A DNA stretch of 19,113 nt from positions 1-19,113 of the forward strand of contig JBDRLP010000031.1 in assembly GCA_043812975.1 (NCBI GenBank), read 5' to 3'. The notes below the pieces were generated by a model. The model was not told the DNA's origin and made no database searches. It saw nothing but the letters and a program-made list of their open reading frames with translations. Made by a program: the position numbers and the translations under genes. Positions 1-18,843 of this stretch are shown in pieces. This DNA comes from Candidatus Iainarchaeum sp. (GTDB lineage Archaea; Iainarchaeota; Iainarchaeia; Iainarchaeales; Iainarchaeaceae). Positions within the stretch are counted from its first letter, which is position 1. Each line of letters begins with the position of its first letter.

Positions 1-173
1 TGATGGTTCGTTATCAGAATTCCTGATGTTGTTGAACAGGTGTTTCCTCCAACCTGGCTTGGTTGAATCAAAAACACAAGTGCCGCAATAACTATAACTA
101 TGACAATTAATGCCCAGCCATAAGTCATCAGATATTCCAAAGCGGATTGTCCTTTTTGTTCTTTGAAAAACAT
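1..173 (-). CDS. Class III signal peptide (type IV pilin-like) protein; 5' part only, runs off the window start
   Basis: Not in the ORF track. Manual translation from ATG at 173: MFFKEQKG|QSALEYLMTYGWALIVIVIVIAALVFLIQPSQVGGNTCSTTSGILITNH. It has a short leader, a KG/Q prepilin cleavage site, Glu at +5 and a hydrophobic helix. Confidence 0.9.
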   Translation of the reverse strand, partial: MFFKEQKGQSALEYLMTYGWALIVIVIVIAALVFLIQPSQVGGNTCSTTSGILITNH

Positions 174-180
174 GTTTTTC

Positions 181-192
181 TCACTCCTCCTT
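181..192 (-). promoter_or_regulatory. Strong Shine-Dalgarno sequence for the pilin gene
   Basis: Minus strand reads AAGGAGGAGTGA-GAAAAAC-ATG. Confidence 0.8.
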
Positions 193-272
193 TTTTATTT
201 TAGGCATATGCCCTAAAAAGTTGAATTAATATAGAAAGGACTTATATTTAAAGATAAGGTCTTAAAGGAGGG

Positions 273-3022: not shown

Positions 3023-6000
3023 ATGAACAAAAAAATAATGTATTTAACTTTGATAATTTCATTTCTTATACTGCTTCCTGCCGTAACTGGGGCAGACTTA
3101 TTTTACTTAAGAGGGGACTCAAAAACAGAAGAAGTTGATTTTGTTGAGTATTACGAAATAAGTATCACTGCGCCAAAAGCAACTACTCAAACAACAACCA
3201 TTTCCAAAACAACTGTTGCCGGAGTACACGAGTTAGAAAGTTGGTTTACAGAATTAGTGACATCAGAGTTCAGTATTTCAAATTCAGCATACCTTTACTT
3301 TTCAAGCATTGGTATTTCAGGAGACACGGGAAAATATCGCTGGACTGTTTATGATTATAATCCTGTTACTACTTCAAGTATTATAATTGTTCAATCAAAT
3401 TGGTACACTATCCCAACAACACCTTCACCTCATGAAACGTTTGCTAATGTTCCTTCTTACACATTTGCAGTTGGTCGCAGAGCAAAATTAGTATTAGAAT
3501 ACAATGCTGATTCCGGAGGAGGAACAATAACTGCTATCCTTGATGAAGGCTCAAGCGGTAATTCTGTTCAATATAATTCCTCAGGCGGTTCTTCTTACAA
3601 TATAACTGATGTAAGCAATGCTGTTCTGATTTTAGTAAATTCAACGGGAAGTTGTTCTATTGCATGTACTTCAAATACTGCATGTAATGATTCTGATAGT
3701 TTAACCACTGACACGTGCAGTAATGCAGGGGGCTGTAATTCAGTATGCGTGAATTTAAGTTCTGATGTGGAAATAGCATGTTCTTCTAATTCTGATTGTG
3801 ACGATTCAAACAGTCTTACAACTGACTCTTGTTTAAATCCCGGAACTGGAAGTTCTTCATGTTCTAGTGCTGCGTGTTCTATTGTATGTTCTTTAGATTC
3901 AGATTGTCCCTCTGATACTAACGGAACCTGTTCTAATGCAGGAACATGTTCAGCAGTATGCAGCTATGGTAATTCAGTTGACGTTGATGATCCCACGGAT
4001 GATAATAACGATTCTACTGAAGAAATAATTTGCACTTCAGATTATGTTTGTAATGATAGAATAAGTATAACCACTGATACTTGTGTGAATCCCGGAACTA
4101 TTTCTTCTTATTGTGAAAATATTCAGTGTAGTATTGCATGTTCAAGTAATAGCGCTTGTAATGATGCAGATACTTTAACAACAGATTTTTGTGCTAATGC
4201 GGGCTTGTGTGATTCTGGGTGTATATACAATTCCTGTAATCCTGTTTGTTCTAACAGTTCTGATTGCGACGACGGTAATCCAGAAACAACAGATGTTTGT
4301 GCAGGTGCAGGGAGATGCACAGCTACTTGTGAAAATCTTCCTGATGTTGGTGATGGAGTTTGTGGTTCTGGTGAAACTAAATGTTCCGCTCCTGCTGATT
4401 GTGGTGTTTGCGGAGGAAGTATTTCTGAGGTTTATGAATTAGCATGCATTGGGAATTCCTGTAAAACCACAATAAAACTCGGGGTTTGCGGAAATAACAG
4501 GTGCGAATCCGGAGAAAATTATTTTAACTGTCCAGTAGATTGTGTTCCGCAGAACATTGAAATTGATGCTTCTTTTCCTGATACTTTTTATGTTCGCGGA
4601 GAAACTGTTCAGTTGAAAGCTACAATATTAGTTGATGGGGAAAAGGTTAGTGATGCTGATGTAAAAGCAAGCGGTTTTTTCGGAACTGTTCCGCTTCTGA
4701 ATGACGGTAAACATGATGAAGGAACAAGAAATGACAATATTTATGCAAACTTTATTACTATTGACTTTGCCGCTGAAAAAAACTTATACCCCGTGACTTT
4801 TATTGTTGAGGTTGGAGGAGTTAAAAGTGAAAAGATAGTATTTTTTAATCTTGTTCCAAAACTAAGTTTTTTGGTTGATTTTGAAAAAGAATTTTTTATT
4901 CTTGGAGACAACATAAAGATTGACGGAAGATTAACACTTAAGAAAAAACACCTGAACCTGCCTCTTAATCTTAATGTGTCTTTTAACAGTGAAATTATCC
5001 TGAATCAGGATCTTAATTCTGCTAATGGAAACTTTTCTTCTAATTACAGGACAACTCTAATCAATGAACCAGGAGATTATATTGTTACTATTAAAGCCGC
5101 TGATGAAAACGGAAATGTAGGTTTTTTTGAAAAAACAATCACTGTGTTAAGTCCGGAAGCAACTAACTTTTTGATTATTGAAATTGTAGACACTAATAAT
5201 AATTCTTTTAAAAAAGGGTCTGAAGCAGAGATTGTAGTAAATATATATGATATTGAAAGGAATCCTGTTTCAAAAGCAATTGTAAAAGGGGAAACAAAAG
5301 ATGGTTTGAAATTTTCTTTTGAAGAAAATGATTCATTAGAATATGCAGGTTCTTTTAAGCTCCCTTACCAGACACGTAATGGAGAATTGAGTATAAAAGT
5401 TGTTGCACAAAAACAGAACAAACAAGGTTCAGCGGAAACAAGTGTAAATGTTACTGAAGTAAAAATAAACCTGGAAATAATTGAACCAAAAAAAGACAAT
5501 TTTTTAGTAGGGGAAGAAATAAAAGTCAAAATTTATGCTGCTTATGAAGACGGTACTCCTCTGTTAACTGAATCAGTTTCCAGTATTATTGGAAATGAAA
5601 CAATCGAACTGAAAGGCACAGGAAAAGGAGTTTATGAGGGTGTTTATTTAGTGAAAACAACGGATGAAGGGACGGTTTCAGTTACAATTAATCTTCAGGA
5701 CGGTTTTGATAATACAGCTGTTGAAACAATGTCGGTTGATATTTCAGGAATTTCTTATCTTTATTATTTAAGAATTTACGGGACGAGTATTGGGCTTTTT
5801 TTAATTGCATCAATTATAACAATTATTTTTGGTTATGGTTTACTAAAAAAAAGATTCGGAATAAATGCTCTGCAAAACAAAGAGAAACAGGTTTTGGAAA
5901 CAATCAAAGGAATCCAGACACAATATTTTATTGAAGGAACAATGGATAAGCAAACCTATGATGTGCAGATGGAAAAATATGAAACAAAATTGCAGGACAT

Positions 6001-6043
6001 TAGAGAAACCATAAAACAAATGGTCTCGAAGGTAAAAAAATGA
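3023..6043 (+). CDS. Large single-pass surface protein with Cys-rich repeats, beta-rich (Ig-like) domains and a SHOCT-like tail (paralog 1)
   Basis: Signal peptide MNKKIMYLTLIISFLILLPAVTG, Cys repeats 3653-4543, NDGKHDE..NDNIY motif, TM at about 5779-5844, helical tail IQTQYFIEGTMDKQTY; many N-x-S/T sequons. Confidence 0.85.
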   Translation: MNKKIMYLTLIISFLILLPAVTGADLFYLRGDSKTEEVDFVEYYEISITAPKATTQTTTISKTTVAGVHELESWFTELVTSEFSISNSAYLYFSSIGISGDTGKYRWTVYDYNPVTTSSIIIVQSNWYTIPTTPSPHETFANVPSYTFAVGRRAKLVLEYNADSGGGTITAILDEGSSGNSVQYNSSGGSSYNITDVSNAVLILVNSTGSCSIACTSNTACNDSDSLTTDTCSNAGGCNSVCVNLSSDVEIACSSNSDCDDSNSLTTDSCLNPGTGSSSCSSAACSIVCSLDSDCPSDTNGTCSNAGTCSAVCSYGNSVDVDDPTDDNNDSTEEIICTSDYVCNDRISITTDTCVNPGTISSYCENIQCSIACSSNSACNDADTLTTDFCANAGLCDSGCIYNSCNPVCSNSSDCDDGNPETTDVCAGAGRCTATCENLPDVGDGVCGSGETKCSAPADCGVCGGSISEVYELACIGNSCKTTIKLGVCGNNRCESGENYFNCPVDCVPQNIEIDASFPDTFYVRGETVQLKATILVDGEKVSDADVKASGFFGTVPLLNDGKHDEGTRNDNIYANFITIDFAAEKNLYPVTFIVEVGGVKSEKIVFFNLVPKLSFLVDFEKEFFILGDNIKIDGRLTLKKKHLNLPLNLNVSFNSEIILNQDLNSANGNFSSNYRTTLINEPGDYIVTIKAADENGNVGFFEKTITVLSPEATNFLIIEIVDTNNNSFKKGSEAEIVVNIYDIERNPVSKAIVKGETKDGLKFSFEENDSLEYAGSFKLPYQTRNGELSIKVVAQKQNKQGSAETSVNVTEVKINLEIIEPKKDNFLVGEEIKVKIYAAYEDGTPLLTESVSSIIGNETIELKGTGKGVYEGVYLVKTTDEGTVSVTINLQDGFDNTAVETMSVDISGISYLYYLRIYGTSIGLFLIASIITIIFGYGLLKKRFGINALQNKEKQVLETIKGIQTQYFIEGTMDKQTYDVQMEKYETKLQDIRETIKQMVSKVKK
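3653..4543 (+). repeat. Six ~35-aa Cys-rich repeats plus two CG-type Cys modules within paralog 1
   Basis: Consensus (C)xxxCxSxxxCxDxxxxTTDxCxNxGx(C)xxxC; repeat 3 is shortened. Then GDGVCGSGETKCSAPADC and CGNNRCESGENYFNCPVDC. Confidence 0.9.
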
Positions 6044-8502
6044 AAAATATTTGGTTATTATTCATGCTGCTTTTTGCCACTGTTTCAATGGCTGCAAGCA
6101 ATGGTTATTGGTTAAGAGGTGACGATTTTACCAGTCTTTTGGAAGGAACGCAAAGTAACTTTATGACTGCCAATTCTCCAAATGCATCTTCAAGCAAAAC
6201 AGTTTTTTCCCCTAATGAAGAAGGAGTTTTAGGAAAATGGTACACAAGTTCTTTTCCAAGAGGACTGCAGCTTCATACAAGCATATCTTTCTGGGTAAAT
6301 AATATTGAATCATCAAAACCACTTATTTGGGAACTTTATGAGTATAATTCTAAATCTGCTGATAGTAAATTAATCACAACAGGAACTATAGAGTCGGGAA
6401 AAAATGAATCTGAGGTGACTCTGGAACAATCATACACTTTAGCTTCCGGAAGCAGGTTAAAAGTAGTTTTAAAACTTGAAGACGGAAAAATAACTCTTGA
6501 TGAAGGGGATTTATTCAGCAAATCAGAGTGGGATTCTCCCTCTGGTGAAACTTTTAATGCAATAGGAATTTCCTCAACAGCATTACTTTTTCTGAACCAA
6601 TGTGATTTTGTAGATGTTACATGCACTGATGACTTATCCTGTAATGACAGTAATCCTTTTACTCAGGACACTTGCAATAATCCAGGTACCTGTTCAGCTT
6701 CCTGTTCTTATAGTGCATGTGAACCCAGCTGTATTAATGGCCTTGACTGTGTTGATAAAAATCCTCTTACAATAGATGTTTGTAAGAATTCAGGTACTTG
6801 TCAGGCAGAATGTAGTTCTATCAATTGTAACTCGCTTTGTTCTGTAAACTCTGATTGTGATGATAATAATCCCGAAACTAAAGATATTTGTCAGTATTCT
6901 GATACTTGCTTTGCTTTCTGTGAAAATGAAGCTTTTGAAGGAACAATAACTGAGAAATCCTGTACAATAAATGAATGCATCGGAACAAACTGTACTATTT
7001 CAGTTTCAATAAACTGCTGCGGCAATGATTTTTGTGAACAAGGAGAAACATGTGATGAAGATTGTTCAGGAAACACAATAGAAATCATTAACCCAATGTT
7101 CGGGGATTATTTGAATTTAGAAGAGGACTTCAATATTCTTGTTAATGCAGGCATAGGAAAAAATGTAACTGCTACAGGATTTTTTGGAACCGCAGAATTA
7201 TTTGATGACGGTAAACATAATGACGAAAACCCAGGAGACGGCATATATGGGAATAATTTCAGAGCCCCCTCCAGAGAAGGATTTGAATCAATAGAAATTA
7301 GTGACGGTTCACAGCAAAAATCATTACAGCTGAATGTAATACCTTTATTGGAAACAATTCTTAACACTAATAACGAGGAATTTATTGTTACTGATTCTTT
7401 AGAAATTTTTGGAACTGTTTCCAGAAAATCTTCACCGGTAGCGGCAGAAATGACAATAATTGCAGAAAATTCTGACAGGATTATTTTTGAGACAAAACAA
7501 GAATTGGATAAATTTGGAAATTTTAATTATTCTTACAAATCATTTTCTTTAGACCCAATAGGAATCTGGAATATAAAAGTATCTGCTGAAGACGATTCAG
7601 GGAATATTGCCCATGCAGAAAAAAAAGTAAGATTTATGAACCCAGAATCGTCGCTTCCGATAGAAATAGAAGTGGTAAAAAGCATAAACGCCCAATATTC
7701 CAGAGGAGAACAGATCCTAATCTCAGTTAGAGTAAGAGAGGAAGGAATTCTGGTTAATAATGCGGTAGTAAAAGCATTTATTGGGGGGGAGGAAATAGAA
7801 TTTACTTTTGAAGATAACGGATCTTACGCTTTGCAATATGTTCTTCCTACTGATTTTAGCGGAAACTCATTAATGGTTGTTATACTTGCTAAAGTAAATG
7901 GTTTAACAGGCAGAACAGTTCTTGAATCTGAAATAAAAAATGAGAATCTTTTTGTGAACATTATAAGTCCTACTAAAAAAGTTTTTTCAATCGGGGAAAA
8001 AATAGATTTTGAGTTCAAGGTTATATTTGAAAGCGGTGCAGATGCAAAAATAGTTGAGCCACTTGTCGTAATCAACGGAACTCAAGTTGAAACAGAAAGA
8101 AATAATGGTTATTTTGTTGCAAAATATGTTGTTGAAAATGACGAAGAAATTAATGTTTCAATAAATGCACAAGATAATTATGAGAACAGTGGTTCGGCTG
8201 TTTTTAATGCAAGTGTTTCCGGTTATTCTTTGAATTATTATTTTTCCCAGTATTGGTTAATAATTTTAGTTGTTGGTTTAGCAATAATAATCGGGTTATT
8301 TTTAGTTGTTACACACTATCAATCTGATAAGCGAATTGAATTATTGGAAAAGCAGGAGAAAAAAATTAAGGCTAATCTAATAAATGTACAGGAGCGTTAT
8401 TTCAAGTTAGGGGCGCTTTCCAGATCAAAATATGATGGATTAATGCTTAAATATGAGCAGGAACTACAGGCTATTAGGAGAAAAAAAGGTGAAAAAAAAT
8501 GA
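6040..8502 (+). CDS. Single-pass surface protein, full-length paralog of 3023-6043 (paralog 2)
   Basis: Signal peptide; YWLRGD / WELYEYN / SYTLASGSRLKVVL / TLDEG match FYLRGD / WTVYDYN / SYTFAVGRRAKLVL / ILDEG of paralog 1. Three Cys repeats, DDGKHND..GDGIY, TM at about 8251-8310, tail VQERYFKLGALSRSKY. ATGA overlap with the upstream gene. Confidence 0.85.
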   Translation: MKNIWLLFMLLFATVSMAASNGYWLRGDDFTSLLEGTQSNFMTANSPNASSSKTVFSPNEEGVLGKWYTSSFPRGLQLHTSISFWVNNIESSKPLIWELYEYNSKSADSKLITTGTIESGKNESEVTLEQSYTLASGSRLKVVLKLEDGKITLDEGDLFSKSEWDSPSGETFNAIGISSTALLFLNQCDFVDVTCTDDLSCNDSNPFTQDTCNNPGTCSASCSYSACEPSCINGLDCVDKNPLTIDVCKNSGTCQAECSSINCNSLCSVNSDCDDNNPETKDICQYSDTCFAFCENEAFEGTITEKSCTINECIGTNCTISVSINCCGNDFCEQGETCDEDCSGNTIEIINPMFGDYLNLEEDFNILVNAGIGKNVTATGFFGTAELFDDGKHNDENPGDGIYGNNFRAPSREGFESIEISDGSQQKSLQLNVIPLLETILNTNNEEFIVTDSLEIFGTVSRKSSPVAAEMTIIAENSDRIIFETKQELDKFGNFNYSYKSFSLDPIGIWNIKVSAEDDSGNIAHAEKKVRFMNPESSLPIEIEVVKSINAQYSRGEQILISVRVREEGILVNNAVVKAFIGGEEIEFTFEDNGSYALQYVLPTDFSGNSLMVVILAKVNGLTGRTVLESEIKNENLFVNIISPTKKVFSIGEKIDFEFKVIFESGADAKIVEPLVVINGTQVETERNNGYFVAKYVVENDEEINVSINAQDNYENSGSAVFNASVSGYSLNYYFSQYWLIILVVGLAIIIGLFLVVTHYQSDKRIELLEKQEKKIKANLINVQERYFKLGALSRSKYDGLMLKYEQELQAIRRKKGEKK
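6601..7065 (+). repeat. Three Cys-rich repeats plus a CCGNDFCEQGETCDEDC module within paralog 2
   Basis: CNDSNPFTQDTCNNPGTC, CVDKNPLTIDVCKNSGTC, CDDNNPETKDICQYSDTC. Confidence 0.88.
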
Positions 8503-9719
8503 AGAAAATAATGATTATTTTTGCAGTTTTATTTTTAGCAGGCTTTTCTTGTGCATTAACGCTAAAATCCGGACAGACTAATTATGAAAAAGGAAGCGAA
8601 ATAATTCTTTCCGGTTCATGTGACCTTGGAAGTATGCATCGGTTAAGTGCAGAGCTTGGTAACAAAAAAATTTTTGATGAACAAGTAAGTTGTTTTAGTG
8701 ATGGAAAGTTTGATTTCAAATACCAAACTAATTTTTTAGATCCTAGTGGCAACTGGAGAATAAAATTGTTTACTGCTGAAAACGAAACAGATATAATTGT
8801 AATAGTAAAACCAATTCCAGAATCAGCATTTTACAGAATAACTTTTTTGAGTCCCGCGGGAGTAGCATTCAAACGAGGGGAAACCATATTTCTAAGTGTT
8901 GAAATAACAGATTCAGGGAAAATCGTGGATGATGCGCAAGTTATAATGTATGACGTATTCGGAAGAAGAATAGATCTCAAAAGAGAGGGAAACGGAATTT
9001 ATGATTTGAATTATGGCATTCCTTTTGATGCCCCTGAAGAAAACTGGGTTTTGACAGTTATTGCGCAAAAAGAAGAAAATGGCAAACTTTATGGCGGGGA
9101 AAGAATTTTGGAAATAGATGTTCTCCCGGCATCATTTATTTTCCAGATTATAGAGCCGGTAAACCAGACTTATGAGCAAAGCGATAAAATACCTGTAAAA
9201 GCAAAGGCAACTTATTCAAACGGAGCGAAATTAACCCAGGCAAATATTGAAGTTGCTGAACTGAGAGTGGGTCAGGAAAGAACTCCTTTTGAGATAAATT
9301 CTAACGGAGAACTTATTCTGGCTTACGAACCAAAAGAAACAGGGAACCAGATTTACCGGATTTATCTAAAAGATGCTGCAGGAAATGAAGCAGAACACAA
9401 GATAGAACTAATAATAACCTGCTCAGCAACCTGTCTGATAAAGAATTACGGGTTAATCGTCTTGGTGATTATTCTTGTTTTAGGTGTTGTTTCGAAATTA
9501 TTTTACACTAAAATAAATTACACAATTCAATTATTAAAACTTAAAAACGAAAAAGCAAAAACAACAGAACTAATCAAGGATTTACAAAGAGAGTATTTTG
9601 AAAAAGCCGTTATGCCTGCAACAAGCTATAAGCGTAACATGGCTATATACAAGTCAAAATTAATAGAACTTGATGAAAAAGTAAAACAGATGGAAAATAA
9701 GATTCAACAGGAAAAATAA
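8499..9719 (+). CDS. Short single-pass surface protein lacking Cys repeats (paralog 3)
   Basis: Signal peptide; FKYQTNFLDPSGNWRIK matches YSYKSFSLDPIGIWNIK (paralog 2) and SNYRTTLINEPGDYIVT (paralog 1). TM at about 9447-9506, tail LQREYFEKAVMPATSY. ATGA overlap and a GGTGA SD. Confidence 0.82.
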   Translation: MKKIMIIFAVLFLAGFSCALTLKSGQTNYEKGSEIILSGSCDLGSMHRLSAELGNKKIFDEQVSCFSDGKFDFKYQTNFLDPSGNWRIKLFTAENETDIIVIVKPIPESAFYRITFLSPAGVAFKRGETIFLSVEITDSGKIVDDAQVIMYDVFGRRIDLKREGNGIYDLNYGIPFDAPEENWVLTVIAQKEENGKLYGGERILEIDVLPASFIFQIIEPVNQTYEQSDKIPVKAKATYSNGAKLTQANIEVAELRVGQERTPFEINSNGELILAYEPKETGNQIYRIYLKDAAGNEAEHKIELIITCSATCLIKNYGLIVLVIILVLGVVSKLFYTKINYTIQLLKLKNEKAKTTELIKDLQREYFEKAVMPATSYKRNMAIYKSKLIELDEKVKQMENKIQQEK

Positions 9720-9755
9720 AGTATTTTAAATAAAGAAAAGTAATTGGTTTTGAAT

Positions 9756-12158
9756 ATGGATGAAAAAAGAAAACAAGCTATTTTGATTGCAACAAAAAAA
9801 TTGCTTGAAAGCAAAACTCCTGAAAAAGAAATATCAGTATCTTTAGGTGAATTTGGAGTAACCAAAGAACAGGCTCTTGTACTTATTAAAGAAGCAAAAT
9901 CGTCAAAAACACTCAAACCCTTACCAAAACCAGTACTTCAGAAGAAAGTATTGCTCGTGAAAAACCCAAAACCAGTTGAGAAACCAAAAATACCTGAACC
10001 AAAACCAGCCCCTGGATTAAAAGTAGAATCAAAAAAGGAAACTCTGAAAAAAATTGATGCGGAAAAACAAAAAATCCCGAAACAAAAAATCGAAATTCCT
10101 CTTAAGAAGGATTTCCCGGAAAATGATAATTTGTTTAAACAGGTGGAAAAACAAACAGAAGAATTAGAAAAAGAACCGAATAAAGAGAAAAAAAGTTTAT
10201 TTTCAGGATTTTTCCGAAAAAAGGAAAGCACCCCGAAAAAGGAAAGCACTCCAAAACAGAAAAGTCAGTTGCAAAATAAAAAAACATTTATCCCGAAACT
10301 AAAAAAAGGCGGAAAAGCAAAAGTAAAAGAAATACTTGTAGAATCTAAGCTTGGAAAACAAACAATGAAAAAAGTAAAAGAAACTTCTTCTGTTAAAATT
10401 CCAGTTAAGAAAGAAACTTTCTCAAAGCCAGAAGAAAAGAAAAAAGATGTGAATAAAGAAATTGTGCTTAATTCTGAAATAAAAAAGCTAGAAAAAAAAA
10501 TAGAACAACCGAAAAATCTTACAGGGTTTTCGTTTTCCAGCAGTCTTGACGTTTTAGAAAAAAAGGTAGAAAAAGGAGAAGATATTGAAACTGCAGTAAA
10601 AGAAATGAGTCAGGAAAAAGCAATGAAAAAGATTAAATCCTCTGAAATAACTATTCTTATAATCCCTAATAAAGAATACAGCCACGGTATTTCTACTTTG
10701 CTGACAAAAGTAGGGGCTTCTTATAAAAAAATTATTTATGTGAACCTGAATGAGGTTTACAAAAGTTTAATGCAGCACTTAAGGAATCTTAATTTAAAAC
10801 ATGAAAAATTCTTTTTTGTTGACGCAGTAACTCTAACTTCTGATAAAAGTACAACAAAAGAAGAAAACACTATTTTTGTAAGCAGTCCAAATTCATTAAT
10901 AGAATTAAGTCTAGGAATAACTCAGGCATTGAATACTCAAAATGCTGATGCGTTACTTTTTGATTCGCTTTCAACACTTTTGATTTATGAAAAAGAATCA
11001 ACAGTAACAAAATTTATCCATTCCCTAATCGGAAAAATAAAAGCGTCAGGAATAGATGCATTTTTTACTGCTCTTGAAGGAGATTCTCAGAGTGAATCAA
11101 TAAAGGACCTTGGGATGTTTGTTGATCGCGTTAATACTTTAACCGAGTTTGAACTTGGAGAAATGGGGTTCCCTAATCAGCAATCATCAATGAGAATGCA
11201 GCCAATGCAGATTAGTCAAACATTTTCTGCTCCGAAACGTTCCAGAAATGATTTAAATGTTCAGAATGAACAGAATAAGATAGTTACCCAAGAAATGGAA
11301 GGACTTAAACAAAGACTTCAGGAAATGCAAAATACAAAAGAAGTTACAAAATCACTTAATGAACTGAAAGGCAAAATAAGCAAAATTGACGATTTGAAGA
11401 ACCTTCAGGAACAGGTTAGGGAAATTTCTCAAAAAATTGAAAAAAAATCGGAAAAAACAATCGATAAAGACCTGATTAATGAAATTTCTAGGTTAGAGAA
11501 AAAGATAGATTCAACACAGAAAAAGAAAGTCAAAACTGAAGACAACCAAGCCAACAAGGAAATCCAAAAAGCACTGAAAACATTGAATGAAAAAATAACT
11601 AAAATAGAAAACCTTTCAAGTTTGCAGACAAAAGTAAAAAATCTTTCAGAAAAAATAGACAAGAAAAAAGAAAAACCCGTAGATAAAATTATGATAAATC
11701 AAATAAGCAAACTCGAGAAAAAAATCGGTTCTTTGGAAAAAAGGTTAGCAAAAAAAATGCGTGACAAAAAAACAAAAGACGAAAAAACCACGCTCAAAGA
11801 AAAACTTGCGATTCACAAAAAACAAATTGATTTGGAAAGCATGATGAATGACTTTTATAAAACAGATGTCAGCAAAATAAATCCTAATAATGTTATGACC
11901 AAGAAATTTGAACAGAATCTTGACAACAAAACAGGTGTTTTAACTAAGGCTTACAGAAAAGGAATTATTTCAAAGAACATTTACTCCAAAGGAAAAAAGA
12001 GAATAAAGCAAGAAGCAAAGCGTTTGAAGTATGCTGCTCAGATGAGTTCCCTTGAAAAAAATCTTAATGCGTTGAATGAAGCTTATGATTCAGGCATAAT
12101 AAGTAAGGAATCCTATGCAAAAGGAAAAGTAAGGCTTGAGAAATTGCTGAAATCGTAA
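9756..12158 (+). CDS. Multidomain cytoplasmic protein: N-terminal helical domain, K/E/P-rich linker, inactive KaiC/RecA-fold (DUF835-like) domain, duplicated coiled coil, two SHOCT-like repeats
   Basis: LLFDSLSTLLIY..KFIHSLIGK..FVD motif with no Walker A (about 10644-11141). AYRKGIISKNIY and AYDSGIISKESY at the C-terminus. ATG 9756 is preferred over TTG 9744 because TTTTAAATA lies at 9724-9732. Confidence 0.8.
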   Translation: MDEKRKQAILIATKKLLESKTPEKEISVSLGEFGVTKEQALVLIKEAKSSKTLKPLPKPVLQKKVLLVKNPKPVEKPKIPEPKPAPGLKVESKKETLKKIDAEKQKIPKQKIEIPLKKDFPENDNLFKQVEKQTEELEKEPNKEKKSLFSGFFRKKESTPKKESTPKQKSQLQNKKTFIPKLKKGGKAKVKEILVESKLGKQTMKKVKETSSVKIPVKKETFSKPEEKKKDVNKEIVLNSEIKKLEKKIEQPKNLTGFSFSSSLDVLEKKVEKGEDIETAVKEMSQEKAMKKIKSSEITILIIPNKEYSHGISTLLTKVGASYKKIIYVNLNEVYKSLMQHLRNLNLKHEKFFFVDAVTLTSDKSTTKEENTIFVSSPNSLIELSLGITQALNTQNADALLFDSLSTLLIYEKESTVTKFIHSLIGKIKASGIDAFFTALEGDSQSESIKDLGMFVDRVNTLTEFELGEMGFPNQQSSMRMQPMQISQTFSAPKRSRNDLNVQNEQNKIVTQEMEGLKQRLQEMQNTKEVTKSLNELKGKISKIDDLKNLQEQVREISQKIEKKSEKTIDKDLINEISRLEKKIDSTQKKKVKTEDNQANKEIQKALKTLNEKITKIENLSSLQTKVKNLSEKIDKKKEKPVDKIMINQISKLEKKIGSLEKRLAKKMRDKKTKDEKTTLKEKLAIHKKQIDLESMMNDFYKTDVSKINPNNVMTKKFEQNLDNKTGVLTKAYRKGIISKNIYSKGKKRIKQEAKRLKYAAQMSSLEKNLNALNEAYDSGIISKESYAKGKVRLEKLLKS
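10218..10253 (+). repeat. 18-bp in-frame tandem duplication (KKESTP x2)
   Basis: aaaaaggaaagcaccccg followed by aaaaaggaaagcactcca. Confidence 0.85.
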
Positions 12159-12208
12159 AAGAAACGTTTAAAAAGGAAAAAGAGTTTATATTTTAGAACA
12201 ATTTTGAG

Positions 12209-12625
12209 ATGAATCTAATGCCTAAAAAGAAAAAAATAGTTAAAAGATCCAAGAAATCAGTAAAAAAAATAAGGGCAAAAAAGCCTGTTAGAAGGAAAAA
12301 AACAACCAGAAAAACAACAAAAAAAGCTTCAGATAGATATGAGGAGCATCATTCTGTTTTAAGAGAGGCATTAAAGGATATTGCTAAGGAACTCAATCAG
12401 CTTAGAGAAGCAAAAGCAGAGATGGAAGGGACTTTAGATGATGTTGTTGGTGACATTACTTCTACTCAAAATAAGGAAGTTCAATTAAAAGATCAGCTTA
12501 GAAAACTTAGTTCTGTTGAAAATTCTCTAACTCTTAAAAGAGCAAGAATGAGAAAGAAACTGGAGAACGTCAAAGCCAGAATAAGCAAGGTAAGACAGCT
12601 TTCCAATCAGATGGAAAATATCTAA
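12209..12625 (+). CDS. Small protein with a highly basic N-terminal tail and C-terminal coiled coil
   Basis: MPKKKKIVKRSKKSVKKIRAKKPVRRKK..., then heptads (LKDIAKELNQLREAKAEMEGTLDDV). The start may be 12218; TATA-like TTTATATT at 12185. Confidence 0.75.
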   Translation: MNLMPKKKKIVKRSKKSVKKIRAKKPVRRKKTTRKTTKKASDRYEEHHSVLREALKDIAKELNQLREAKAEMEGTLDDVVGDITSTQNKEVQLKDQLRKLSSVENSLTLKRARMRKKLENVKARISKVRQLSNQMENI

Positions 12626-12643
12626 AACTATTTTTTTCAAAAA

Positions 12644-13861
12644 TTAGTCTTCTCTGAATATTTCCTGATCAATATAAATTTCAAAACCGCGCGGAGTAAT
12701 TTTGTATGGTACTAATTTTTTTGCATGTGCGCTACTCCTTAGTTTTAAAATTTCCAAAGCATTTTCTCTGTTGTTATGAACTTTAATATTATAAAAAACA
12801 ACAACTGCATCAGCAAGGAACTCTTCAATACCTAATCGTGAGTAAACATTAGGTAGTTGTTCTGTTTCCCCAAAAACTAAATTTACTGAACCATAATTTT
12901 CAAGTGTTTGAAACAAATGCCTCAAATATTGTCTATATCCCTGGTGGTTGTCAACAAAAGCAATTGATAAAGCTGATAATGAATCAACTACAACTCTTTC
13001 AGGTTTGAAAGGAAGATCAAACTGGAAAGGCAAATCAAATTGTTCAAATTCGATGTAAAGACCGCCTCTTTCTTTTGTTAAAGTTGCTTCAACGGCTCTG
13101 GCAATAGTCAAAGGATCAATTTTAATTATTGCGAGCATTCCTTCTTTTTCCAGTGCATCAAGATCCCACCCAAAATTTTCCATCATGTTTTCCTTAATTT
13201 TTTCACCTGTTTCCTCTAAAGTTAAATAAACTCCTTTTTCTTTTCTCAGTTTGGCGCCTTCATAAATAAACTGCATTCCAAAAGTTGTTTTTCCTGTTCC
13301 TGCACCCCCTGAAATTAGAATTGTGTCTCCTCTTTTGAATCCGCCTCTGTCGATTAGTTTGTCAAAATCACTAACAAGTACAGGAACGGTTTTCCTGAAC
13401 TGTGTTTTTTTGTAAGTATAGTGTCCAGGGGCTTTTGATTTAAGTTCTGCTTCAGCTTTCTCAAAATCAGGCTCATCACTTTTGCCCAATAAAGAAAAGC
13501 CTTGTTTTTTAAAAGGTTTTTCTTTTGTTGATTTGAAAAAACTTTCATCTGAAGAATTCCAAAAATCAGCGCCAGAGTTGCTTGCAGAAGCGTTTCTTTC
13601 TTTTCCCTGATTGTTTTTATTAATCAAAGATTCTCCTGAGTCCCAAAAACTGTTATTAGACGTGTTTTTTTCTATAGGTTTCTCTGCATTTTTATTTTCA
13701 ATAGGCTTTGGGGTGGCGTCTTTTGCTGCATCCAAAATAGTCTTTGCTTCTTCCTTGCTGACGCCTATATCAGTCATACTCTTCATTGCTTCTTCTTCCG
13801 AGGTCCCAGTATTAATAAGCCTCTTGGTAGCATCGATAAGTCTTTGTTTGTTTTCAACCAT
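12644..13861 (-). CDS. Single-domain KaiC/RAD55-family ATPase with an N-terminal helical domain and disordered linker
   Basis: Walker A GGAGTGKT, catalytic TLEE, MENFGWD, Walker B RVVVDS, IEEFLADAVV and LKLR finger. Confidence 0.92.
   Translation of the reverse strand: MVENKQRLIDATKRLINTGTSEEEAMKSMTDIGVSKEEAKTILDAAKDATPKPIENKNAEKPIEKNTSNNSFWDSGESLINKNNQGKERNASASNSGADFWNSSDESFFKSTKEKPFKKQGFSLLGKSDEPDFEKAEAELKSKAPGHYTYKKTQFRKTVPVLVSDFDKLIDRGGFKRGDTILISGGAGTGKTTFGMQFIYEGAKLRKEKGVYLTLEETGEKIKENMMENFGWDLDALEKEGMLAIIKIDPLTIARAVEATLTKERGGLYIEFEQFDLPFQFDLPFKPERVVVDSLSALSIAFVDNHQGYRQYLRHLFQTLENYGSVNLVFGETEQLPNVYSRLGIEEFLADAVVVFYNIKVHNNRENALEILKLRSSAHAKKLVPYKITPRGFEIYIDQEIFRED
13007..13042 (-). repeat. 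18-bp in-frame tandem duplication (QFDLPF x2)
   Basis: Minus strand caatttgatttgcctttc / cagtttgatcttcctttc; all differences are synonymous. Confidence 0.85.
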
Positions 13862-13957
13862 ACAAGCAAATAGTATATTTTAATGAATATAAAATTGTTT
13901 AGGTGTAGAAGATAGTCTTAATAATAGCCTCTTGGCTTATTTTTTGAGTGAATTTTA
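13862..13957. promoter_or_regulatory. Divergent promoter region between the two KaiC-like genes
   Basis: Minus-strand TTTTATAT at 13895-13888, about 30 nt before ATG 13861; plus-strand TTAATAAT at about 13918. Confidence 0.45.
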
Positions 13958-14686
13958 ATGCCGGAAAAAACTATTGAAAAAACCACTGAAAAATTTGATG
14001 TTAAAAGAGTCAAATCAGGAGTTGAAGGCCTTGATGAAATGATGAACGGAGGAATTCCACGGGGAAACTTAGTTGTTTTAAGCGGAGATCCTGGTTCTGG
14101 AAAAACAGTGTTATGTTGGCAGTTTATTTATGAAGGAATAACAAAATTCAATGAAAATGCAGTTTATGTTTCTTTGGAAGAAACAGAAGAAACTATTTAT
14201 GCGGGTGCGAAAGAATTTGGTTGGGATTTGAAGAAACTTGTTGATGAAGGAAAATTATTAATAATTACAATTGAACTTTATGATTTTGAAAGATTAAAGG
14301 CCGCGGTGGAAGATAACGTAAAAGCAATTGGTGCAAAAAGAGTGGTTATTGATCCCGGGGTTATATTCAGATTATTTTTTGATCGTGAGTTAGATGCAAG
14401 AAAAAGAATTGTTTCACTTGGAAAAATGTTAAAGGCAATAGGAACAACAACAATAATCACAAATGAAATAAGCCTTGACAAAATATCCTCTTTATATGGT
14501 TTGGAAGAATACGTTGCTGACGGAGTAATACTTATTTATCACACCAAAATGAAAAATCGTTTTGTGAGAAGCATCGCAGTTCTAAAAATGAGAAACACTG
14601 AGATAGCTGAAAAATTAAAACCAGTAAAAATCACGAATGAAGGAATAAAAGTTTTGTCAAAATCAGAATTATTTGACGAGGTGTAA
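13958..14686 (+). CDS. Single-domain KaiC/RAD55-family ATPase
   Basis: SGVEGLDEMMNGGIP, Walker A GDPGSGKT, SLEE, FGWD, RVVIDP, LEEYVADGVI, LKMRN. Confidence 0.93.
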   Translation: MPEKTIEKTTEKFDVKRVKSGVEGLDEMMNGGIPRGNLVVLSGDPGSGKTVLCWQFIYEGITKFNENAVYVSLEETEETIYAGAKEFGWDLKKLVDEGKLLIITIELYDFERLKAAVEDNVKAIGAKRVVIDPGVIFRLFFDRELDARKRIVSLGKMLKAIGTTTIITNEISLDKISSLYGLEEYVADGVILIYHTKMKNRFVRSIAVLKMRNTEIAEKLKPVKITNEGIKVLSKSELFDEV

Positions 14687-14689
14687 ATA

Positions 14690-15295
14690 ATGCCAGTTGG
14701 GGATTGGAGTGAAGAAAAACTGGAAAATCTGTTAGATAAACAAAATCAGTTACGTATAAGGGTAACTCATTCTTTGGATGGAATAAAAGAACCTTTTACA
14801 ATTCTTGCATTAGTAAAGCCAAAAGAATACTCTGGAATAAGAGACGGAGTAATACAAAAATATTCAAAATCAGATGTTCAGGTTGTATTCTTGTCTTTAA
14901 ATACAGGTTATGCTAAAATTGTACAGGATTTGCAAAAAGAAAAACTTGTTTCAGATAACATTTTTTTTATTGACATGATTTCTATAGAAAGAAACCTAGA
15001 CCCAAAAAAAGCCTCTAATGTGGTTTATTTAGAGTCACCAACAGACTTAACTGAGGCCATGCTTCAAGTAGTAAAAAAACTTGATGAAAAATCAAGAACT
15101 ATATTAGTACTGGATTCTATTTCAACACTTCTAATTTATAATGATAAATCATCTATTGAAAAGTTTGTCCACACTTTAATAGGAAAAATAAATGCAAATA
15201 AATCTTCAGCCTTACTTTTGACCTCGGATGCAAAGCAGAGTGAAGAAATAACAAAAACAATAAGCCAATTTGTTGATTTTACAATTAATTTTTAA
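14690..15295 (+). CDS. Stand-alone inactive KaiC/RecA-fold (DUF835-like) protein
   Basis: IFFID..ESPTDL..LVLDSISTLLIYN..KFVHTLIGK..SQFVD with no Walker A; starts after a 3-nt gap behind the KaiC-like gene. Confidence 0.82.
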   Translation: MPVGDWSEEKLENLLDKQNQLRIRVTHSLDGIKEPFTILALVKPKEYSGIRDGVIQKYSKSDVQVVFLSLNTGYAKIVQDLQKEKLVSDNIFFIDMISIERNLDPKKASNVVYLESPTDLTEAMLQVVKKLDEKSRTILVLDSISTLLIYNDKSSIEKFVHTLIGKINANKSSALLLTSDAKQSEEITKTISQFVDFTINF

Positions 15296-16562
15296 CTTCG
15301 AATTTTTTATCAAAAATCAGATTAAAAGCATACAAAATTTTTTTATCCACTGCCAAAATTTCCTCGTTAACAGAAACCTTTTCAGATTCTAATTTATTCA
15401 GAGACCAGTTTAATTGTGAAAGTTCTTTGCCTTCGGTTTCCAAATCTGATTCTAATCCTCTTAATTCTGAAGAAATATCAAGACTTGCAACCCTTTTTTC
15501 AATTTGATTAAGATCTGATTGTACATTATTAAGCTTCCAGAAATAATCTGAAAAAAAGTCCTTTTCTATAAGCTTTGACAATGCACTAAATTTCTTTTCT
15601 TTTTCTTTATCTTTGAAAGATATTGTTCCCTGTTTCACTAGTTTTTCGGCTTTCACAATAACACTCTTGAATGCTATCCCTTTCGGATCTAAAGTTATTG
15701 CCCTGGCAGGTGTACTCAAAAGAAAACCCAAAAGTTCCTTTTCTTTCGGATCAAGCATTTTAGTTGATTCTGCAACAGATTGAAGCCTCTTAAGTATTTT
15801 TTCAACAGGGGCTAATTCAGAATTAAAGTTTGCAACAAGTTCCTGTTTTTGTTTTTCAAAAGATTCCTTTTTATTTGCGAATTCATTAAGCGATTCTACT
15901 TCTTTGGAATTTTTTTTGTCAGAAATTTTCCTATCAAGCTTTACAACCATTTTTTCTTTTTCCCTTATCTTGTTTTTTGAATCAGAAATTTTCAATTCCA
16001 ATTCCTCTGAAAGTTTTTTATTTCCCTTAATTTTCTCAAGAAAATCATTTATCTTTTCTAGATTAATTAGTTTTTCAGAAAATGCTTTCTTCTGAAGTTC
16101 TTCTAAAGTCTCAAGGAGTTCTTTCAGATCATTGCCGATTGAATTCACTTCATCTTTAAGCATTAATTTTGCCAAAGCAATATTTTTCCAGTAAGGCATC
16201 AAATCATTAGTAATAACTAAATTAGATTTTGTAATATACTCTCTTAGAGTATCTGATTCAAACTTAGTTGGAGGGACAATTTTTTTAGAAATCCCTTTCA
16301 ACTGCCTAACAAGATTTTTTTGGGAAGTAACAACAATTTGTCTGTATTTTTTATTGCCTTCATTTAGGTCTATTTTATGGTTTTCAAACAAAGAAGCACT
16401 TTTGGTTAATCTAATTGAAAGATGCTTTATTTCCGCAAATTTTTTGGAAGAAAAATCAAGAATATCTTTCTTTTCAGCATCAAATTCACTCATAGCTAGT
16501 TTCTTTGCTTCCTCTAAAGAAACAGACTTTGCTTTTTGTTTTAAAAAATCCAGCATTCCCAT
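15285..16562 (-). CDS. Long coiled-coil hypothetical protein
   Basis: K/E/L-rich heptads throughout with no ATPase motifs. Likely start ATG 16562 or 16556 (MGMLDFLK) rather than GTG 16598. Its 3' end overlaps the convergent gene by 11 nt. Confidence 0.75.
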   Translation of the reverse strand: MGMLDFLKQKAKSVSLEEAKKLAMSEFDAEKKDILDFSSKKFAEIKHLSIRLTKSASLFENHKIDLNEGNKKYRQIVVTSQKNLVRQLKGISKKIVPPTKFESDTLREYITKSNLVITNDLMPYWKNIALAKLMLKDEVNSIGNDLKELLETLEELQKKAFSEKLINLEKINDFLEKIKGNKKLSEELELKISDSKNKIREKEKMVVKLDRKISDKKNSKEVESLNEFANKKESFEKQKQELVANFNSELAPVEKILKRLQSVAESTKMLDPKEKELLGFLLSTPARAITLDPKGIAFKSVIVKAEKLVKQGTISFKDKEKEKKFSALSKLIEKDFFSDYFWKLNNVQSDLNQIEKRVASLDISSELRGLESDLETEGKELSQLNWSLNKLESEKVSVNEEILAVDKKILYAFNLIFDKKFEVKN

Positions 16563-16579
16563 AAAAAATATTCCTCTAA

Positions 16580-16644
16580 AAATGGTTATTAACCGCACCG
16601 ATGCTCATTTGGATTCGCATCGGCACTCAACTCTAAAACCACTT
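16580..16644 (-). other. Intergenic extended hairpin / GC-rich inverted repeat
   Basis: Core CCGATGC-N12-GCATCGG (16598-16623), extended on the minus strand by G-U-containing stems. Confidence 0.6.
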
Positions 16645-18108: not shown

Positions 18109-18843
18109 ATGACCCCAAATCCAGCTTTAAAAGAATCAAGGGGTGTTTCTGGAAAGAAGTTAGAGCCTCTGCTTAAGCCCCGTTTATTTAGATGGTTTAA
18201 AAAAGCCAGAGTTTATGGAAAGATTGATGGTGCTATTGCTTTGCAGGAAATCTGCCGCAGAACCAATGTTCCTTTTGATCAATTCAGGGTTTATGAACCA
18301 AGAGAACCAGTTGATATTGGGTGGATCAAAGGCGCTGAAAGAATTTTGGTAAGAAGCAAAGATGACCGAAAGGAATATGTCCTGGCGGGTAAGAATTCAA
18401 GAGAAATCAATGAAGTTCTTCGTTCTATTAGGCGCGGTAACAATAGCCAACGGATAATTATCCAGAAAGTTGGATTGAGAGAGCATATTTCAAGTTATGG
18501 GCAGATAAAAATTGAAGTTAATCCAATAACAGGCCAGATTAGGATAAGTTATGGGGAAAAAACACAATCTCCCGCATCTATAAAAAATAAAGGGGTTTTT
18601 GTAGCTCCTGTAAAAAAATCTTTAAGTTCAATGGCCTCAAAACTCGGCAAAGGCGAGAAGCTCCAGATTAATGACATGCTTGGCCATCCGAATGCTGCAG
18701 AAATGATTCGGGAAGTTGCACATGAAATATGCAGAGATGGGAAAGTTGCGCGCGTGAGATATGTAAGATATCTACCGCGAGGAAATAAAGGAAGCGAACC
18801 GTATTTCTATGATTTAATTTCAATTAATCGCTTTATGGTTTAA
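18109..18843 (+). CDS. Hypothetical basic (Arg-rich) protein
   Basis: 244-aa ORF with a TATA-like TTTTATATA at about 18077-18085; no family motif recognised. Confidence 0.65.
   Translation: MTPNPALKESRGVSGKKLEPLLKPRLFRWFKKARVYGKIDGAIALQEICRRTNVPFDQFRVYEPREPVDIGWIKGAERILVRSKDDRKEYVLAGKNSREINEVLRSIRRGNNSQRIIIQKVGLREHISSYGQIKIEVNPITGQIRISYGEKTQSPASIKNKGVFVAPVKKSLSSMASKLGKGEKLQINDMLGHPNAAEMIREVAHEICRDGKVARVRYVRYLPRGNKGSEPYFYDLISINRFMV

Follow-up and report, generated by a model that had tools for sequence, protein, structure and literature searches.

The window analysed here is an entire contig of 19,113 bases (JBDRLP010000031.1) from a Candidatus Iainarchaeum sp. genome (1.24 Mb, 94.5% complete; labelled G000 in our comparisons). 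It encodes three surface proteins (S1, S2 and S3), a scaffold, a basic coiled-coil protein (CC), two KaiC-like ATPases of 405 and 242 amino acids (aa; K1 and K2, respectively) and an inactive KaiC-fold protein of 201 aa (D). We found that surface proteins sharing one conserved cytoplasmic tail recur together with K1, in a cassette that is a real, conserved and probably undescribed variant of the proposed archaeal KaiC hubs. This recurring pairing suggests an undescribed way to organise or control adhesins from the cell interior.

The initial annotation of this DNA placed the eight genes in 3023..15295 and regarded them as one system. All eight open reading frames (ORFs) were recovered there and most of the homology links drawn between them hold, but five details need qualifying, and the genes are not one operon. 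K1 lies on the minus strand, divergent from K2 with 96 bp between them, and the locus therefore comprises at least three transcription units. More importantly, the eight genes are three modules that come apart in relatives. Module A pairs K1 with one to three single-pass surface proteins whose conserved tail is a helical hairpin. Module B is K2 with the inactive D, a pair linked to type IV pili and usually accompanied by a 437-aa coiled coil, and module C is the scaffold with CC. The complete eight-gene order on one contig occurs in G000 and G014, and long stretches of it are found in six other genomes (G001, G003, G007, G010, G011 and G038).

Co-occurrence of K1 with tailed surface proteins

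Among 201 genomes of the phylum Iainarchaeota, 65 have an S3 match, 52 have a K1-clade gene and 51 have both; G188 (139 bits) was excluded from the 53 genomes with K1 matches because it was treated as outside the K1 clade. The S3 search left 31 weak matches unlisted, and eight places found with the S1 query were added for the distance count, in which 66 of 82 K1 genes lie no more than 4 kb from a surface gene. Four more K1 genes proved to be linked on inspection (L123, L124, L127 and L130). Of the 12 left, most are close to the end of a contig or belong to a split copy of the window locus; L121 is a real exception. The usual cassette holds one or two surface genes and K1 in variable order and strand, with up to four cassettes per genome (four in G035), and most cassettes have no scaffold, CC, K2 or D nearby. 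The initial annotation was to be abandoned if surface and KaiC genes neither co-occurred nor co-localised in relatives; surface genes and one KaiC subfamily do both, very strongly.

The tail profile matches 153 of 161 Iainarchaeota surface proteins. Four of the eight misses are cut or masked, three have only Cys repeats in common with the family, and one has a frameshifted tail. Moreover, a profile built from Iainarchaeota tails alone finds the same hairpin outside that phylum, beside K1-like genes of records that are labelled Woesearchaeota or Hadarchaeota. In the Woesearchaeota order (301 genomes), 35 genomes have a K1-like gene, 43 a tail and 31 both, and 25 of the 37 K1-like genes have a tail no more than 8 kb away; in the Hadarchaeota phylum (61 genomes), the figure is 11 of 16 within 5 kb. 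One example, L148, rests on the unpublished genome G202, which is in none of the counts. The ectodomains in both other phyla are mostly unrelated to those of Iainarchaeota. Tailed proteins of Woesearchaeota measure about 300-2400 aa, their ectodomain families are Big_1, Big_13, DUF11 or NEW3, and the usual set there is K1 with a protein of about 1,300-2,400 aa bearing one or two tails and a one-tail protein of 320-560 aa.

SHOCT-like helices had been read in all three tails and twice in the scaffold. The two-helix resemblance stands: the S1 tail has two amphipathic helices near the C-terminus, a SHOCT trait, and the tail profile aligns to the last repeat of the scaffold with a probability of 38% (E 3e-4). 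Membership in SHOCT (PF09851) stays below the Pfam cut-off, the scaffold scoring 14.8 bits against 27, and SHOCT was not among the 25 of 158 Pfam families displayed for 129 tails. Against PDB sequences, the tail profile gave no meaningful match (best E 0.032).

Several candidates and odd cases concern the tail. G044 was considered as a tail-less, K1-less control and rejected, for the tail is there but frameshifted, maybe through an assembly error. In this genome, which is 95% complete and has no K1 match, the tail of the S3 homolog (L071:10566-11693, G044:C1) runs on in another frame, either by decay after loss of K1 or by an assembly error. G069 and G062, with weak S3 matches, were likewise dropped as exceptions, the fetched regions holding tail-less Cys-repeat proteins. 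A weak tail copy (15.6 bits) ends an orphan 554-aa single-pass protein at G000:C12:19371-21035 (-) (L234:4372-6036), which could use K1 in trans. Two soluble proteins of 200-250 aa (G000:C28:10920-11669, +; L043:3860-4456, -) have two weak tail-like hairpins and no evident membrane helix, and are possible decoys or regulators.

S1, S2 and S3 are three coupled single-pass paralogs, as first described. Their genes overlap by ATGA at 6040-6043 and 8499-8502, S1 and S2 match at E 6e-76 and S3 matches either at E of about 1e-17 to 1e-21, and each protein has one C-terminal hydrophobic helix. The ectodomains had all been called Cys-rich, which applies to S1 (42 Cys) and S2 (26 Cys) but not to S3, with only 5 Cys. 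The S2 signal peptide was seen by eye only and is below the hydropathy threshold applied; S2 also contains the choice-of-anchor X motif (NF041940, 28.2 bits against a cut-off of 25). The family is large: the S3 profile retrieves 509 representatives at E values of 1e-30 or below, and the tail is present in 140 of the best 150; MG2 was matched in 23 of 61 S3 family members by Pfam scan. Seven family representatives were looked up, and the two names that came back were both "hypothetical protein".

An AlphaFold2 model of S1 (mean predicted local distance difference test score, pLDDT, 87.6; predicted template modelling score, pTM, 0.48) has a beta-sandwich tip, Cys-rich repeats, about four immunoglobulin (Ig)-like domains, a long transmembrane helix and a cytoplasmic hairpin. 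The tail helices span residues 912-971 and 976-1005, in a register that agrees with the scaffold repeat. By Foldseek, the stalk resembles macroglobulin domains in tandem (E 5e-16; whole-chain template modelling score only about 0.2). Modelled alone, the tip reaches a pLDDT of 95.9; its nearest fold is the C-terminal domain of CocE/PepX hydrolases (Z 14.2, root-mean-square deviation 2.8, 153 aligned), followed by carbohydrate-binding modules (CBM15, Z 8.0). The tip is possibly ligand-binding, although fold likeness by itself proves no function. ESM Atlas matches, taken as leads only, join the tip to unnamed clusters (0.89-0.90) and S3 to MG2 (0.86). From their acidic residues, one may guess that the Cys-rich repeats of S1 bind calcium.

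The two KaiC-like ATPases are intact, in agreement with the first description: K1 and K2 score 166.9 and 199.7 bits against PF06745 (cut-off 26.6). Both carry the Walker A, catalytic EE, Walker B and K-x-R finger motifs of the KaiC family, Walker A being present in K1 by alignment and in 18 of 18 members of the K2 family. K1 is CI-like, since its closest PDB sequences are cyanobacterial KaiC and its G-I-E-E-F-L-A-D motif aligns with CI. In a quick tree, which took in 97 of 196 domains, the tail-linked ATPases form one clade apart from K2 (Shimodaira-Hasegawa-like approximate likelihood ratio test, SH-aLRT, 98), and the clade includes a Thermoplasmatota group.

Within this clade, the alignment revealed an insertion not seen in other KaiC proteins. 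Iainarchaeota, Woesearchaeota and Hadarchaeota all retain its core, D-P-x-x-I-x-R-x-V-E; in the Thermoplasmatota subclade the core is replaced and no tail lies nearby. G514 has both kinds of insertion, and only its K1 copy with the intact insertion adjoins tailed proteins, two in number. The insertion occupies the place of the CI loop after D-P-D-P, the B-loop that binds KaiB and SasA, and it is a candidate docking site for the tails. A complex prediction of two K1 ATPase domains with ATP and the S1 tail scored 0.10 against a mark of 0.32; its controls were not folded, and it is used here neither way.

A second K1-clade gene of this genome (G000:C1:51726-52421, -) is cut at the contig end. Its ortholog in G003 follows a 591-aa tailed protein, and therefore the partner of the second K1 is probably in the assembly gap from C36 to C1. 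In a scan of public genomes, the closest labelled relatives of K1 were Candidatus Iainarchaeum records. A K1 fragment with 60% identity to the window K1 (L170) lies on a contig labelled Desulfovibrionales, which is probably a misbinned archaeal contig.

The K2-D pair and the scaffold as separable modules

K2 and D form a KaiC pair of their own, associated with pili. A single copy of K2 is present in 77 of the 201 Iainarchaeota genomes, 32 of which are without K1, and K2-D lies beside pilus genes in L244, L247, L248, L250, L039 and L047-L049; these pilus labels were given by similarity to G038 genes, themselves named from motifs. In G038, a pilus operon lies between K1 and K2. K2 has a deviant Walker B in both K2 sequences displayed, I-D-P-G replacing the D-S of KaiC proteins. 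D passes DUF7090 (35.5 bits against 27) and DUF7504 (28.4 against 27), is below PF06745 (24.6 against 26.6) and fails DUF835 proper (PF05763; 26 against 33.1).

The dead ATPase domain of the scaffold had been proposed as a paralog of D, and the alignment bears this out (29.6% over 169 aa, E 6e-21; hhalign probability 99.9). Walker A is absent from both families (0 of 18 for D, 0 of 22 for the scaffold domain), and the scaffold domain scores 36 bits against DUF7504 (cut-off 27); both are thus inactivated KaiC-fold (iKaiC) domains, with a KaiC-related fold and no Walker A. Direct profile alignment of the two inactive domains to K2 was weak (probability 1 and 10).

The scaffold was also said to share its N-terminal domain with K1. 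The two do have it in common (scaffold aa 8-80 against K1 aa 3-65, 34%, E 3e-5), but it is not private to the pair. The domain, which has no Pfam match, also heads three unrelated G000 proteins, two long coiled coils and one with two membrane helices (G000:C23:11697-12338, C41:24033-25550 and C27:78663-79316), and is absent from the K1 of stand-alone cassettes. Across the lineage, it may serve as a tag for docking or localisation.

Relatives have scaffolds of about 220 to 810 aa, in which the N-terminal domain or the repeats are often missing, the SHOCT-like repeats being gone in g5 and f14, and short-scaffold versions of the locus occur in f14 and f17. CC is present in 26 of the 201 genomes; in family f2, it sits at a separate locus, and in 4 of 7 fetched regions the adjoining gene matches the scaffold. 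Since most cassettes are without a scaffold, the scaffold is dispensable for the cassette. The scaffold linker contains the motif F-I-P-K-L-K-K-G-G-x-x-x-V-K-E-I (window 10287-10360, scaffold aa 182-205). This motif is also retained, twice in one case, in genus g4 remnants of 200-225 aa (L048:11109-11711 and L049:10800-11477), at a locus that has lost the surface genes and K1.

A proposed tail-binding hub and its alternatives

From the architecture, linkage and modularity of the cassette, we infer that K1 acts as a dedicated hub: switched by nucleotide, it would bind the tails and would cluster or regulate the adhesin-like proteins, a reading to which we give a probability of about 55%. The functional core is a cassette of two parts, K1 and a set of type I membrane proteins that vary in their adhesin-like ectodomains but share one conserved cytoplasmic hairpin tail. 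By analogy with KaiC and ArlH, K1 would form an ATP-dependent ring at the inner membrane face, bind several tails through the clade-specific insertion and gather S1, S2 and S3 into a surface patch, which the nucleotide cycle would switch between held and released. In this lineage, the cassette has settled beside the type IV pilus region, where K1 acquired the small N-terminal domain in common with the scaffold; the scaffold, with its inactive KaiC fold and tail-like repeats, may act as a competing or tethering regulator.

A number of findings weigh against this hub. The support for a K1-tail link is purely genomic, and co-regulation could also give linkage; moreover, the K1 and tail counts are not independent events because the genomes are kin. 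K1-clade genes without a tail nearby exist across our sets (L121, L151, L167 and L228), L151 retaining the R-x-V-E core, and tails without K1 at our thresholds occur in 12 Woesearchaeota and 11 Hadarchaeota genomes; the orphan tailed protein on G000:C12 has no KaiC neighbour. A strict insertion pattern, written after the alignment was seen, matches only 75 of 95 linked K1 and also one of eight unlinked K1 away from contig ends, and this unlinked set is largely one clade (4 of 8). The Thermoplasmatota subclade is weakened as a clean control for tail loss because four of its five genomes have tail matches elsewhere.

The proposal that one eight-protein machine operates here, in which the scaffold couples the tails to mixed rings of active K1 and K2 and inactive D, was the interpretation of the initial annotation. 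Its surface-KaiC co-localisation was borne out and its scaffold-based wiring was not. The shared gene order in G014 and its long parts in six other genomes, the short-scaffold versions in f14 and f17 and the N-terminal domain common to scaffold and K1 at pilus-linked loci are consistent with such a machine. It is nonetheless weakened because the modules come apart: most cassettes lack scaffold, CC, K2 and D, K2 occurs in 32 genomes without K1, stays with pilus genes and is parted from K1 by the pilus operon of G038, scaffold and CC have their own locus in f2, the repeats are missing in g5 and f14, and the shared domain heads three unrelated proteins. We regard this machine as improbable. Equally doubtful, in our judgement, is that K1 and the surface proteins make no physical contact, K1 being merely co-transcribed or co-transferred, for example as an expression regulator or export helper. 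K1 is not co-transcribed with S1-S3 in this genome, which counts for this idea, but the linkage outlasts inversions and changes of order, and mere co-regulation is disfavoured because it leaves unexplained why the cytoplasmic tail, and not the ectodomain, is conserved across phyla.

The surface proteins may also be sensors and not anchors, with a tip that binds a glycan or host surface and a tail hairpin that shifts; the ATPase or autophosphorylation state of K1 would then change, with inactive KaiC-fold proteins, pili or two-component systems receiving the signal. This differs from the clustering hub chiefly in what the ring does next. In its favour, 9 of 13 hand-picked Woesearchaeota-type regions hold an inactive KaiC-fold gene, Pfam-confirmed receiver-domain, histidine kinase, Cache/HAMP and PAS proteins occur in two regions (L213 and L214), and the jelly roll of the S1 tip is related to carbohydrate-binding modules. 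Parts of the literature agree, describing archaeal inactive KaiC domains fused to receiver domains (PMC5847659) and repression of Haloferax motility by the KaiC-like CirA (PMC10983859). However, ectodomains of up to 2400 aa of Ig-like repeats resemble stalked adhesins, and stand-alone Iainarchaeota cassettes are without a conserved flanking output gene. K1 has glutamates at the S/T sites of KaiC CII, yet ArlH, which forms rings, autophosphorylates with no sites mapped (10.1101/2021.03.19.436134). Taken together, we consider transmembrane signalling rather unlikely.

More broadly, and tentatively, any ectodomain with the hairpin tail could dock on a dedicated KaiC ring, which would make the cassette a mobile, hitherto unrecognised transmembrane adhesion or receptor platform in archaea. 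If so, it would be the prokaryotic equivalent of a focal adhesion or of a receptor cluster, by which DPANN cells could grip or sense host surfaces, wired to pili in some lineages and to two-component systems in others. The locus offers two small, soluble partners for direct tests: a tail of 65 residues and an ATPase of 256 residues that carries the candidate docking insertion. The tail is also a marker for candidate adhesins without ectodomain sequence likeness in uncultured archaea.

Relation to described systems and neighbouring features

Archaeal KaiC-like ATPases and inactivated, iKaiC/DUF835-type domains were reportedly proposed as signalling hubs by Makarova, Galperin and Koonin in 2017 (mBio). 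That idea has few named membrane inputs, and the locus bears on how DPANN cells arrange and control their large surface proteins. Like the hubs outlined in parts of PMC5847659, the locus combines single-domain KaiC ATPases and inactive KaiC-fold paralogs tied to membrane or surface genes; it differs in tying one KaiC clade to one tail motif on interchangeable single-pass proteins, an arrangement absent from the passages citing the 2017 proposal in PMC5847659, PMC10983859 and 10.1101/2021.03.19.436134. The initial annotation recognised no named system, and we found no matching one in the literature searched (titles and starts of abstracts, Makarova 2017 outside the comparison), although the supplements of Makarova 2017 may list the neighbourhood.

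K2-D resembles the pilus-locus KaiC proteins (arCOG01171/01174/01175, as given in part of PMC4858521) in lying in or beside a pilus locus in many relatives, with the secretion ATPase, TadC and pilin setting of that class, which stand-alone K1 cassettes do not have. The genes linked to K1 encode type I membrane proteins other than pilins, and pilus genes are missing from the surroundings of most K1 cassettes. ArlH shares the fold of K1 and K2, but they score 25.2 and 52 bits against its NCBIfam cut-off of 215. K1 and K2 are no clock KaiC, and nothing points to a clock: clock KaiC has two tandem domains with S431/T432-type sites, whereas K1 and K2 are single domains with E-E at the aligned place in K1, their TIGR02655 scores are 102 and 128 bits against a cut-off of 546, and no kaiA or kaiB is among the ORFs of the window.

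SHOCT (PF09851) and GvpG-like hairpins likewise form a C-terminal two-helix hairpin after a membrane helix, according to passages of PMC3581485, in which no self-oligomerisation was found and binding to another partner was suggested. The tails differ in being below Pfam detection, in their Y-F-x-x-x-x-I turn and in their longer helices; the tail-K1 pair may hint at a partner of SHOCT-like hairpins. In the arCOG01314 predicted secretion complex, as described in part of PMC5898192, an ATPase gene is also clustered with several Ig-like membrane-anchored proteins, but there the ATPase is an AAA+ MoxR protein with vWA partners and here it is a RecA-fold KaiC. Pfam and NCBIfam scans of the window proteins found no MoxR AAA+ ATPase or vWA domain, and none of nine proteins matched PADLOC anti-phage systems at E 1e-5.

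Table. Features of the window, with positions on the contig
Feature	Position	Strand	Description
Pilin-like gene, 5' part	3..200	-	78% identity over 67 aa to a G001 gene
S1	3023..6043	+	1006 aa; signal peptide, jelly-roll tip, Cys-rich repeats, about four Ig/macroglobulin-like domains, membrane helix, hairpin tail
S1 tip domain	3089..3658	+	Beta jelly roll; present only in long S forms
S1 Cys-rich repeats	3665..4543	+	C-x-D-x-x-x-x-T-x-D-x-C type, plus CGN-x-x-C-E-x-x-E motifs
S1 cytoplasmic tail	5843..6040	+	Two helices, turn Q-x-x-Y-F-x-x-x-x-(I/M)-x-x-x-x-Y; the element that travels with K1
S2	6040..8502	+	820 aa; paralog of S1, choice-of-anchor X motif, tail at 8311-8499
S3	8499..9719	+	406 aa; short paralog, Ig/MG2-like stalk, membrane helix, tail at 9510-9716
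Scaffold	9744..12158	+	804 aa; likely start ATG 9756
Scaffold N-terminal domain	9759-9920	+	Three helices
Scaffold linker			Low complexity, with FIPKLKKGG motif
Scaffold inactive KaiC-fold domain	10620-11153	+	Followed by coiled coil
Scaffold SHOCT-like repeats	about 11934-12152	+	Two repeats
CC	12209..12625	+	138 aa; basic coiled coil, 3' of scaffold-like genes even away from surface genes
K1	12644..13861	-	405 aa; single-domain KaiC ATPase of the tail-linked clade, N-terminal three-helix domain at 13700-13861
K1 clade-specific insertion	13004..13120	-	aa ~248-286; core D-P-x-x-I-A-R-x-V-E; candidate tail-docking surface
K2	13958..14686	+	242 aa; KaiC ATPase, pilus-linked
D	14690..15295	+	201 aa; inactive KaiC-fold protein (DUF7090/DUF7504), conserved partner gene of K2
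Coiled-coil protein	15285..16598	-	437 aa; conserved neighbour of K2-D, probably module B; outside the finding

The partial gene at the left end of the window probably marks the flank of a type IV pilus locus; from its motifs we take it to be a pilin, as we do the TadB/TadC-like labels of its neighbours in G001. At the other end, a basic 244-aa ORF (18109-18843, +) without Pfam or NCBIfam match is missing at this place in G003 and unmatched in the other scanned loci, as a lineage-specific insert. Near tailed genes of Woesearchaeota, a MinD/ParA-type ATPase gene lies between or beside them in three regions (L216:8114-8923, Pfam-checked; L217:10270-11073; L224:6481-7284), one of which (G383) is without K1 at threshold; these neighbours hint at positioning of the surface proteins. 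The RecJ ortholog at L031:9060-11978 (G003:C34; 972 aa) carries about 500 additional residues between positions 297 and 800, which fit a putative intein. Six tandem paralogous genes at G000:C60:3907-8950, encoding proteins of 231-286 aa with starts that by eye look helix-turn-helix-like, adjoin two Cys-rich proteins of about 1,900 aa.

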